Source: a virus. Taken from it: 16,935 nt of DNA. A program made the position numbers. The stretch is from UHGV virus genome UHGV-0107614, one strand, 5' to 3'. Of this stretch, positions 3,001 to 6,000 are shown in pieces. Each line of letters opens with the position of its first letter. The stretch's first letter is position 1.

Positions 3001-6000
3001 GGTGACATGAAGTATGACGGCAGGCGCAGGACTCTGGTCTGCCGTTTTTCATGGGGCATAAAAAACAGGAAGGTGCTGCGATGAAGGTGATTCTGGCTAC
3101 CAGGAATCGCTATCTGGAGTATGGTCTGCAGGCGTTACTGAAGGAACACAGTGTGATACTGGCGAGGGAGTTTTTCCTGCCGGAGAACCGCCGTTATATC
3201 CCGGACTTTGACGAATCCTGGCTGATAATCAGTGATGGCCTGCTGGGCAGGCTGATGCGGTGTATGTTCCAGGGGCGTCATTTTCTGCAACTGGATGCGG
3301 AGTTGCTCCGTGATGGTGAGCAGATAAGTGATGCCATACACAACGGCGTCTGGACGTATAACAGTGCTGCCCGCCCGCTGACGATGTCAGAGATGGTGGT
3401 GATGTTCGGTTATGTCTACCGCCAGTCGAGACCCTGCCGCCTTGCCAGTGAGATGGGTATTAACACAAAGACGGTGAATACCTTTCTGTATACGGGAATG
3501 GCAAAAAACGGACTGTATGGTGTGAGTGTCAGACGGCTTGTTGGTGCCTGATGGCGGTCCTGCCGGATGCGCAGAATCTTCTGATAGTTCAGAAGGTGCA
3601 GATGATGAATAAAGAGAGATGCCGGACAATCGGAAGAAAACGTTACACCACAGGCGCAATGTGCTTCATGCTGTTTGTGTGGCTTGGTGGTGTGCTGGCT
3701 CTTGTTGCTACAGCTGCGGTGGTAATGCAGTAAAAAAGGGGAGCAACATGCTCCCCGACCAGAAGAAAGACGTTTGATAACAATTAGTGAGTTGTTACGT
3801 CTTGTCCAGAATATCATAGCAACACTCTGTTGCAGTGATACCGATCGCGATTTTAGCGAATTCCATCATAAATCCCCTGATTTTTAAGCCTGAAGCAGTC
3901 AAAGGAATTTCTATGCCCTATATCGATATCACCACGATGCGTGGGATGATGCCGCGCGTTGTGACATCCATGCTGCCCGAGCATTCCGCTGTACTGGCGG
4001 AGGACTGCCATTTCCGGTTTGGTGTTATTACACCAGAACGTCAGATATCCGGGGTTGAGAAAACATTCACAATTAAGCCAAAAACAATTTTTCATTACCG
4101 TGACGATTTCTGGTTTGCATGGCCGGATGTGGTGGATGTGATCCGCAGTCCGATCGCTCAGGACCCCCACGGGCGTATTTACTACACTGACGGGCGTTTT
4201 CCTAAAGTGACGGATGCGACCATTGCCACAAAAGGGGACGGGAATCACCCGACATCATCGTATCGTCTTGGGATCCCCGCGCCGACGACAGCTCCTGTCT
4301 GTACTGTCCAGCAGGGCGGTGATGTTTCTGACGATAACCCGAATGATGATGAAACCCGGTTTTATACGGAAACCTTTGTCTCAGATTATGGTGAAGAAGG
4401 TCCGCCAGGTCCGGCGTCTCTGGAGGTAACACTCCGTACTCCGGGAACTGCGGTACAACTGACGCTGGCTCCGGTGCCATTGCAGAATGCCAGTATTAAA
4501 CGTCGTCGTATTTATCGTTCTGCCTCAGGGGGAGGAGAAGCCGATTTTTTACTCGTGGCTGAACTGGATGCATCCGTGCTCAGTTACACGGATAAAATAC
4601 CGGCGAAAAATCTTGGACCTTCGCTGGCGACATGGGATTACCTGCCGCCGCCGGAGAATATGACAGGCCTTTGCCTGATGGCGAATGGTATTGCCGCCGG
4701 ATTTGCCGGTAATGAAGTGATGTTTTCGGAAGCGTATCTGCCGTATGCATGGCCGGAAGTGAATCGTCACACGACGGCAGAAGATATTGTGGCTATCTGT
4801 CCGCTCGGAACATCACTGGTGGTGGCGACAAAGGGTGAGCCTTATCTGTTCAGTGGTGTATCGCCTTCCACAATTTCTGGCTCCAGAATTCCTTCAATGC
4901 AGGCGTGTCTGAGCAGGCGGAGTATGGTCGCGATGGAGGGCTTTGTGCTGTATGCAGGAACAAATGGCCTGGTGTCTGTTGATGCAAACGGTAATGCCGC
5001 TCTGGCGACGGAGCAGATTATTTCGCCGGAACAGTGGCAGAGTCAGTTTAATCCGGTCTCCATTGTGGCTTATCCCTGGCGTGGTGAATACATTGCCTGT
5101 TACACGAAACCGGATGGTAAGCAGGATGTGTTTGTCTTCAACCCGGCAGGTATGGATATCCGCTACCTCAGTACACCTTTTGACTGCGCATGTGTTGACC
5201 TGGTTAACGATGTTATGCGGGTGGTATCAGGACAAAACATGTCTGCGATCGCCGGAGGGAGTTTGCCGTCGACAATCAGATGGCATTCAAAGGTATTTTC
5301 CCTTCCGGAAAGAACCTCTTTCTCCTGTCTCAGGGTGAAGTCTCCGACGCCAGAGCGGGTGGGAATTACTGTGCTGGCAGATGATGTTCCGGTGATTCAC
5401 CTTGCACCTGGAAGCTTTTCGGGAAGCGTTGTGAGATTACCTGCTGCAACCGGGCAAAACTGGCAGATACTGGTTTCCGGTTTTGGTCAGGTTGAACGTA
5501 TTACACTCAGTACATCGATGTCGGAGCTGCCGGTATGACAAAAAAACCGTGGCGCGCAGGAAAGGATTTATCTGCGGTTGTGGAAAATATGGAGATAGGG
5601 ACAGGACAACGTGGCGATGGTCGTCATGCTTTTGTAACCCGTGAAGAACTGGTCGGTCTGAAGCTGGCCCGTCGCCGGACTTCAGGTGGTGCCGCATATG
5701 CCCTTAATCCGGGGATTGAGATGGACAGCTCTGTAATGGTCGTTGATTTCCCATCGAAACCTCAGAATTTTAAGGCGACAGGGGGATTTGGCTCGGTACT
5801 GCTTGAATGGGATATGCCGAATTATCGCGGCCATTCACTGACTGAAATCTGGCGGGGTACGGAGGATGACCTTGCTGATGCCGTGCTGGTTGCCACGACG
5901 CCTGGGCAGGTCTACGGCGATCCGGTTGATCCGGGATGGTCGGGATTTTACTGGATCAGGTTTGTGAATGCCGCAGGCGTTAAAGGGCCGTGGCACGCAG

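Follow-up and report, generated by a model that had tools for sequence, protein, structure and literature searches.

The window analyzed here is a 16,935-nt stretch of the virus genome UHGV-0107614, and it is the late/tail region of a 933W-like Escherichia coli prophage of the P-Eib type. On its plus strand, between the terminator that follows an Eib-type trimeric autotransporter adhesin gene (3016–3050) and the gene for an internal virion protein, we observe two small genes: an open reading frame (ORF) for a 156-aa protein, ORF-156 (3081–3551, including the stop codon), and a gene for a 43-aa single-helix membrane peptide (3602–3733). By sequence comparison, ORF-156 is a full-length homologue of TosE and a member of the TosE family, and at least two types of prophage, 933W-like and lambda-like, have the pair that it forms with the peptide gene as a constant component of the Eib module. 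An earlier note on this window had described a LuxR-type regulator of 157 aa starting at 3081 and a 43-aa membrane peptide, both between the adhesin terminator and the next genes; the location and the peptide are borne out, and the frame of the regulator is real, although its product has 156 residues.

Both genes are under purifying selection and are genuine rather than chance ORFs. The Shine-Dalgarno sequence of ORF-156, AGGAAGG as read from the sequence (3067–3073, plus strand), stands 7 nt before the ATG. The frame is intact in lineages that are 50–86% identical, and codon comparison between lineages gives a ratio of non-synonymous to synonymous substitution rates (dN/dS) of 0.12–0.33 at a dS of ~1.3–2.4, which is near saturation. 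A 166-aa form beginning at the in-frame ATG at 3051 was rejected, as this start has no Shine-Dalgarno sequence and lies inside the eib terminator, and the family alignment begins at MKV. For the peptide, a comparison of seven lineages with ORF-156 partners 68–99% identical to that of the window gives a dN/dS of 0.04–0.25 at a dS of ~1. Relatives of ORF-156 number 44 in a collection of 5.8 billion proteins; they are 50–100% identical, have a common Met start, and come from E. coli in every case where the source is named. When 1.8 billion representative sequences were searched exhaustively with an HMMER profile, only 37 relatives were found, many of them fragments and three of them divergent full-length proteins (31–47% identity), while a scan of one genome per species yielded no relative beyond the loci already in the set.

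The link to TosE is provided by protein P0050 (160 aa), with which ORF-156 shares 32% identity over 151 of its 156 residues (BLASTP E 7e-31; profile E 1.7e-33). In E. coli Nissle 1917, the P0050 gene lies directly after a large repeat-protein gene, which is itself preceded by genes for a PapB/FocB-family regulator and for TolC-family, ABC, and HlyD components of type I secretion. The same gene order has been published for the tosRCBDAEF operon of PAI-aspV (PMC5956150), and P0050 is therefore taken to be TosE and the product of the next gene TosF, which matches GerE at E 1.4e-13. TosE and TosF have been described as LuxR-family proteins associated with motility suppression (PMC5956150, PMC10392849), with TosEF listed among the regulators of fliC expression (PMC10392849); tosE and tosF are reported as members of the tos operon for which very few RNA-seq reads were obtained (PMC5956150). 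The proteins from uropathogenic E. coli CFT073 and from Nissle 1917 resemble ORF-156 over their full length (160 versus 156 aa) and have in common with it the motifs T-x-N-x-Y-L-E-x-G, an Asp that ends β3 (C-D or S-D), LTM-x-EM, KTV, and KNG. A large surface adhesin gene immediately precedes each of the two regulator genes, with a terminator-like hairpin-T5 element in between, and the literature places TosE in the LuxR family. The settings differ in three respects: the tos adhesin is a chromosomally encoded, type I-secreted RTX protein, whereas the Eib adhesin is a trimeric autotransporter encoded on a prophage; the gene downstream of tosE encodes a second LuxR protein, TosF, whereas the gene downstream of ORF-156 encodes the 43-aa membrane peptide; and a TosR/PapB-type regulator is absent from the Eib module.

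Across the family, genes for TosE-like proteins habitually lie directly 3′ of adhesin genes, and these adhesins belong to two unrelated secretion classes. A trimeric autotransporter gene precedes ORF-156 here and its homologues at L001, L002, L007–L010, L012, and L014–L036, and an RTX-type gene precedes those at L011/L013 and L065–L067; loci L003–L006 and L037–L048 are exceptions with no adhesin neighbor. The genes for P0046 (47% identity, L012) and P0049 (37% identity) follow a YadA-anchor autotransporter gene and an RTX-repeat gene, respectively. That for P0020 (68%) stands behind a trimeric autotransporter gene where a lambda-like prophage ends, in the order J, hok, tail fibre, DUF4376, autotransporter, ORF-157, peptide, and then dinI on the other strand. 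Two further genes at such loci deserve mention. In the lambda-like prophage at L007, which has a 68%-identical module, the J tail gene and the gene for the tail fibre flank a Hok/Gef-family toxin gene (1424–1564). At L065/L066, where the P0049 gene (3200–3678) follows an RTX-repeat (HemolysinCabind) gene, a PAPS_reduct/DUF3440 gene lies ~6 kb downstream (9548–10667). We take this domain pair to be that of IbrA, a reported eib activator in ECOR-9, and the co-location may be a coincidence.

From its family profile and predicted fold, ORF-156 is a small LuxR/GerE-type helix-turn-helix (HTH) protein with a receiver-like N-terminus, and its predicted function is DNA binding. The HTH emerges through divergent relatives rather than from ORF-156 directly: the search for Pfam GerE (PF00196) that the earlier note had put forward as a check finds no match in ORF-156 at the gathering threshold or even at E ≤ 1, while among 27 family members, GerE is found in 3 at E ≤ 1 (best 1.1e-4) and Sigma70_r4_2 in 8 (best 2.2e-6). 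A family profile comprising the relatives of ORF-156 with the divergent full-length members added matches the GerE structure 1fse at E 0.0019 and VqmA at 0.02, followed by the HTHs of VraR and EvgA, all in the same register. With hhalign, the family aligns to E. coli EvgA at E 2e-4, over the HTH only and in register; the comparison with NarL likewise aligns the HTH alone, with no receiver-domain signal for either protein, as does that with TosF. An AlphaFold2 model of ORF-156 built from 23 sequences (predicted local distance difference test score, pLDDT, of 86) has the order β1α1β2α2β3α3β4α4 followed by four helices, with a (βα)4 receiver-like domain at residues 1–88 and a LuxR/GerE-type four-helix HTH domain at residues ~100–155. 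The C-terminal helices span residues 102–112, 118–125, 129–142, and 151–155, and block-mean pLDDT values are 89–95 over residues 101–140 and 65–80 over residues 141–156. Model and profile together thus place a four-helix bundle with an HTH in GerE register at the C-terminus. The best 40 Foldseek matches in the PDB are all full-length NarL/FixJ-type regulators, with FixJ at the top (E 5e-4); the matches include StyR, DesR, VraR, RcsB, EvgA, LiaR, VpsT, spr1814, and DosR, and the probability is 0.95–1.0 for full-length FixJ, StyR, DesR, RcsB, and EvgA.

The model points, with moderate strength, to a flavodoxin-like, receiver-like fold for the N-terminal domain. Four β-α units are predicted, and in the family alignments, D52 at the end of β3, the acceptor position, is invariant and is the sole pocket residue of a response-regulator receiver that is kept. 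T7-R8-N9 occupies the place where the acidic pair after β1 would be expected, D or A follows β4 in place of Thr or Ser, and β5 and the Lys are missing. Because the acidic pair, β5, and the Lys are absent, the domain is receiver-like but probably cannot be phosphorylated, and there is no kinase gene adjacent to ORF-156. The HTH and the receiver-like, apparently non-phosphorylatable N-terminus had both been claimed in the earlier note, and both are upheld, the fold of the latter from the model. The motif W[FLM][TS]R is taken for VpsT-like binding of cyclic di-GMP; inspection by eye found no such motif in ORF-156, and this reading was rejected.

The peptide, MMNKERCRTIGRKRYTTGAMCFMLFVWLGGVLALVATAAVVMQ, is preceded by the Shine-Dalgarno sequence GAAGG (3592–3596), 5 nt upstream of its start. 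Residues 1–17 carry a net charge of +5, and Kyte-Doolittle hydropathy reaches its maximum of 2.4 over residues 24–42, such that the peptide is predicted to consist of a basic tail and one transmembrane helix, oriented N-in/C-out and with essentially no periplasmic part. Its core, [KR][KR]Y[TI][TA]GAMCFMLFVWLG, is invariant at the protein level with varying codons, and this conservation, which covers the juxtamembrane segment and the inner helix half, points to contact with a specific protein. A role as a chaperone for the adhesin was rejected, the peptide having no periplasmic part. We find 32 relatives, for which all named sources are E. coli; phrog_9340 (E 1e-29), a family of unknown function, is the only match, Pfam, NCBIfam, and Rfam giving none. 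In GenBank, the peptide appears as a 60-aa form, ‘ORF-60’, with a 17-codon extension (3551–3601, plus strand) that overlaps the ORF-156 stop codon as ATGA and is probably untranslated spacer. The 43-aa call is the better one because the extension has four non-synonymous and no synonymous changes relative to L015, is absent or closed by a stop in L027, L007, and L035, and lies outside the PHROG 9340 profile, which is 43 aa long and corresponds to residues 18–60 of the 60-aa form.

Comparison across loci indicates that the peptide is an operon partner of ORF-156 and not a separate toxin cassette, since its orientation is constant and it begins ~40–70 nt or less from the ORF-156 stop: the spacer is ~40–70 nt in several lineages, and in L026, the 43-aa form overlaps the stop as ATGA. 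Wherever it occurs among the loci examined, it is part of a prophage module with both the autotransporter gene and ORF-156. As to its role, we favor a membrane partner or modulator, with low confidence. The start of the peptide ORF also contains one copy (3603–3617, from the second base of the ATG at 3602) of an exact 15-nt repeat, TGATGAATAAAGAGA, of which the other copy lies in the adhesin upstream region (1484–1498) and would read MMNKETA-stop. Such a repeat is expected ~0.004 times by chance in 2.8 kb, and it may be the relic of a duplicated peptide start.

How the pair would be transcribed is suggested by the elements that surround it. The strong intrinsic terminator after the adhesin gene (3016–3050, plus strand) has a GC-rich stem at 3016–3046 followed by T5 and is recorded as a stem_loop in AF151675; its predicted folding energy is −27 kcal/mol (z −6.0, with 0 of 200 shuffles as good), and a terminator scan matches it as well. 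No plus-strand promoter-like site is found between 1694 and 4000. The tosA-tosE spacer (L013, 16590–16615) has the same adhesin-terminator-regulator layout, with a 10-bp GC-rich hairpin and T5, which may account for the very low tosEF read counts reported (PMC5956150). By this likeness, the 3016–3050 element probably acts as an attenuator that passes a fraction of transcripts to ORF-156. Because this terminator separates the pair from the adhesin gene, the pair lies outside the minimal promoter-gene-terminator cassette of a phage moron; as the earlier note had said, both genes nevertheless travel with the adhesin.

The right end of the module is marked by a conserved GC hairpin, GGGGAGCA-ACA-UGCUCCCC (3738–3756), which has a folding energy of −15.4 kcal/mol on both strands and compensatory stem changes in L024 and L007. 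A terminator scan reports it on the minus strand, and it reads as an intrinsic terminator on that strand only, because A6 precedes it on the plus strand. Beyond it, the flank is unrelated between contexts, with dinI following in lambda-like prophages and the gene for the virion protein in this window. A related hairpin of the form A-run plus GGGGAG...CTCCCC lies at 1160–1186, in direct orientation and 70% identical to 3732–3758 over 27 nt. The two bracket the adhesin promoter region, the adhesin gene, ORF-156, and the peptide gene, and the block 1160–3758 moves as a unit. Like a hairpin at 1038–1055, both read as intrinsic terminators on the minus strand only, though all genes here are on the plus strand. 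The three may mark sites where the module recombined, or may block antisense transcription. In 933W-like Shiga toxin (Stx) phages (L050–L063; e.g., L060 4932–5430), a decayed relic lies just upstream of the L0124-like gene, with no adhesin gene. It retains ORF-156 residues 25–77 and 119–156, roughly the final dozen codons of the peptide, and the hairpin, with homology to window positions 3435–3540 and 3689 onward, and is annotated as a 93-aa hypothetical ORF (phrog_2014). Such relics explain why, among 5,426 complete E. coli genomes, 436 give a match to the query but only 42 have the whole pair.

To the left of the pair, a tail fibre gene with collagen repeats and one with DUF4376 (452–1030) are separated by a 680-bp AT-rich spacer from the adhesin gene (1712–2992, plus strand; 426 aa), which has a YadA_anchor match at E 4e-16 and is homologous to the eibD, eibC, and eibA records. 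To its right, the internal virion protein gene starts at 3835 or 3915 and ends at 5538, followed by a tail-tip gene and lom. Megablast of 2993–3914 recovers the same arrangement at 98.7–99.1% identity in phages PhiR12_3, PhiR5_2, GER2, and P-EibD and at 92.7–96.5% identity in P-EibC and P-EibA. The P-EibA, P-EibC, and P-EibD records (GenBank AF151091, AF151674, AF151675), which have the same genes at 92.7–98.7% nucleotide identity in the order eib, stem-loop, orf-156, orf-60, and L0124-like, have carried both ORFs as orf-156 and orf-60, between annotated stem-loops, since 2000. They differ from our description in giving names without function and in counting 60 rather than 43 aa for the peptide. 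No function is attached to either product in GenBank, in RefSeq/PGAP (‘hypothetical protein’), or in PHROGs, where ORF-156 is phrog_6585 and the peptide phrog_9340, both of ‘unknown function’, and a 2026 paper on the genomic context of EibG does not mention a downstream regulator. What is new is therefore not the ORFs, which were named in 2000, but the recognition of ORF-156 as a TosE homologue. In calling the regulator an orphan and the pair not a standard phage feature, the earlier note overstated the case for a fixed part of the Eib module whose family follows adhesin genes; largely right on domain content, it had missed the prior naming and the TosE family, and its interpretation is partly supported.

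The reading that we favor, with a probability of roughly 0.55, is that ORF-156 and the peptide are an accessory pair of the Eib module, in which an adhesin-coupled, phosphorylation-independent regulator is expressed through terminator read-through. We infer co-transcription, phosphorylation independence, the targets, and the role of the peptide from the comparisons given above. Adhesin transcripts that run past the terminator would supply ORF-156 at a low level, in a layout shared with tosA-hairpin-tosE; with a strong terminator ahead of it and no recognizable promoter of its own, its expression would be low and proportional to that of the adhesin, and its level would therefore report that the adhesin gene is on. 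To bind DNA, at promoters of the host, the module, or both, the protein would pair either with itself or with a NarL/FixJ-type protein of the host, for example RcsB. The TosEF analogy makes reduced flagellar motility in adhesive cells its most likely effect. Feedback on the eib promoter is a further possibility; the only relative studied by experiment is associated with motility suppression. Translated from the same transcript, the peptide would insert in the inner membrane. There, its most likely role would be that of a membrane partner or modulator, whether for the regulator or for a host sensor in the membrane, and not that of a toxin. A precedent for kinase-less LuxR/GerE-type regulators beside an autotransporter adhesin gene is provided by AutA/AutR of avian pathogenic E. 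coli, which bind the upaB promoter and also control distant host genes (PMC4844996). That system is chromosomal and has two regulators, whereas the Eib module has a regulator and a peptide, and it is of a different family, as AutA and AutR are not among the 37 relatives found with the ORF-156 profile.

Several observations weigh against this reading. ORF-156 itself has no Pfam match at E ≤ 1 and no NCBIfam match at E ≤ 10, and we found no mention of it in the searchable literature. TosE acts together with TosF, and there is no second, TosF-like GerE protein in the Eib module. Intact homologues also occur with neither an adjacent adhesin gene nor the peptide, such that the function is not strictly tied to a neighboring adhesin. 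One group, with 68% identity, is found in lambda-like prophages (L037–L048; e.g., L044 5001–5543) between tail-fibre genes and a 440-aa minus-strand ORF, presumably the type III effector gene nleA; the other, with 55% identity, is flanked by hpaBC and PerC-family genes in an islet of the chromosome (L003–L006, 6001–6495). The 933W-like Stx phages that have only the relic show that the pair is dispensable for the phage. Finally, the terminator is strong enough that expression in the lysogen could be negligible, with the pair carried mainly on a Q-antiterminated late transcript.

Among the alternatives, we consider it unlikely that ORF-156 is a dedicated RcsB auxiliary that forms a heterodimer with RcsB on a box upstream of eib to activate the adhesin promoter in positive feedback, with any repression of flhDC passing through the known RcsAB box of that operon. 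The lead for this scheme is an RcsAB-box-like 14-mer, TAAGGAAATTCCGA (1567–1580, plus strand), 145 nt upstream of the adhesin ATG, a candidate site that may be compared with the consensus TaAGaatatTCcta (PMC4325325). Of 18 diverged upstream regions, 17 have it at −142 to −155 relative to the adhesin ATG, and several have a second, inverted copy; the core T1, A3, G4, T10, and C11 is kept in 16 of the 17, L025 having C at position 3. The known RcsB auxiliaries (RcsA, BglJ, MatA/EcpR, DctR, GadE, and RflM) are, like ORF-156, small FixJ/NarL-type HTH proteins with no cognate kinase, which do not need phosphorylation of their own; several are encoded in adhesin or capsule loci, with a reciprocal effect on motility (PMC5651002). 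MatA-RcsB activates the mat fimbrial operon, for example, and RflM-RcsB represses flhDC (PMC5651002). RcsB is also among the top structural matches of ORF-156. Yet no sequence relationship to these auxiliaries is detected outside the HTH, none at all to RcsA-type N-domains, and ORF-156 is shorter, with a four-stranded N-domain. The box in the window alone is not significant (2 matches versus 0.88 expected), and its per-sequence chance at ≤3 mismatches is ~0.09–0.14; its conservation is not independent evidence, as the adhesin upstream regions are homologous, and it could equally serve RcsB alone or RcsA-RcsB. Moreover, going by the title of Sandt et al. (2002), the eib activators are reportedly IbrA/IbrB and not ORF-156. 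Two other elements of this upstream region are conserved. An inverted repeat at 1636–1665 has compensatory changes (CATCAGAT...ATCTGATG in L024 and GTGTCAG...CTGACAC in L027). A 12-bp palindrome, TTTGTATACA(A/G)A (1679–1690), lies between the scanned −35 and −10 hexamers in diverged modules, with a partial inverted copy 210 bp upstream (1466–1480) in this lineage; its occurrence in the window alone is not significant against chance.

It is similarly doubtful that the peptide is an autonomous membrane-active product, whether type I toxin-like, holin-like, or for superinfection exclusion, with no functional relation to ORF-156. Its size, basic N-terminus, and single hydrophobic helix do resemble toxins of the Hok, Ldr, and TisB type and small phage membrane proteins. 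The same features are seen in SafA (safA-ydeO), MgrB, and MzrA, small inner-membrane modulators encoded with regulators, and with SafA the peptide also shares an operon linkage to a transcription factor; no sequence similarity of the peptide to any described family was found. The minus-strand terminator abuts the peptide stop codon, and a convergent antisense RNA with such geometry is known in some type I systems, namely par/fst and txpA-RatA. However, no minus-strand promoter-like site is found between 3757 and 4000, and Rfam gives no match in the window at the gathering threshold or in 2950–3950 at E ≤ 1. As the downstream flank is unrelated between the dinI and virion protein contexts, there is no conserved antisense gene. 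Neither an antisense RNA nor an independent transcription unit, the marks of a type I toxin-antitoxin system, is therefore evident for the peptide. TosE-family loci without the prophage autotransporter module do not have the peptide, which therefore tracks the module rather than the regulator family, but within the module it is operon-linked to ORF-156 by constant orientation, a short spacer, and the ATGA in L026, and the invariant cytoplasm-proximal half of its helix suggests a specific protein contact.

Rather improbable, in our estimation, is a stronger version of the partnership in which the two products form a minimal signalling pair. The receiver-like domain, with no kinase input, would be controlled by the peptide, either through tethering or release or through a hijacked host sensor such as RcsC/RcsD, and the regulator would heterodimerize with RcsB. 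If so, a horizontally acquired adhesin cassette would reprogram the Rcs and motility regulon of the host each time its adhesin is produced.

We consider it very unlikely that the pair serves the phage, being silent in the prophage and expressed only late, by Q-antitermination, for example to shut down host envelope or motility genes or to time lysis. The genes do lie inside the late/tail block in late-gene orientation, behind a strong terminator and with no promoter of their own, and late transcription would pass through them, as the hairpin after the peptide does not end plus-strand transcription. Against this, homologues occur in non-phage loci such as the tos operon in PAI-aspV, the same pair is found at the very end of lambda-like prophages beside dinI and outside the essential tail genes, and Stx phages that have only the relic are viable, as induced phage isolates. 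Finally, that both ORFs have no function and merely hitch-hike with the adhesin cassette is hardly credible: all database entries are ‘hypothetical’ and decayed copies are common in Stx phages, but the selection analysis already contradicts it, with dN/dS well below 1 for both genes at saturated synonymous divergence, frames intact in lineages 50–86% identical, and an invariant peptide core with varying codons.

Eib adhesins confer serum resistance, immunoglobulin binding, and chain-like adherence on commensal and Shiga toxin-producing E. coli. Their expression differs strongly by strain and growth condition (PMC4352079). For small proteins, our analysis adds a well-supported 43-aa membrane protein to those that have gone unannotated and corrects the start of ‘ORF-60’. 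For the regulators, it reveals one small, E. coli-restricted family that trails two unrelated classes of adhesin, the trimeric autotransporters and the RTX proteins. Within this family, the TosE homologue behind eib is a concrete, prophage-borne candidate for cross-talk between adhesin production and motility.

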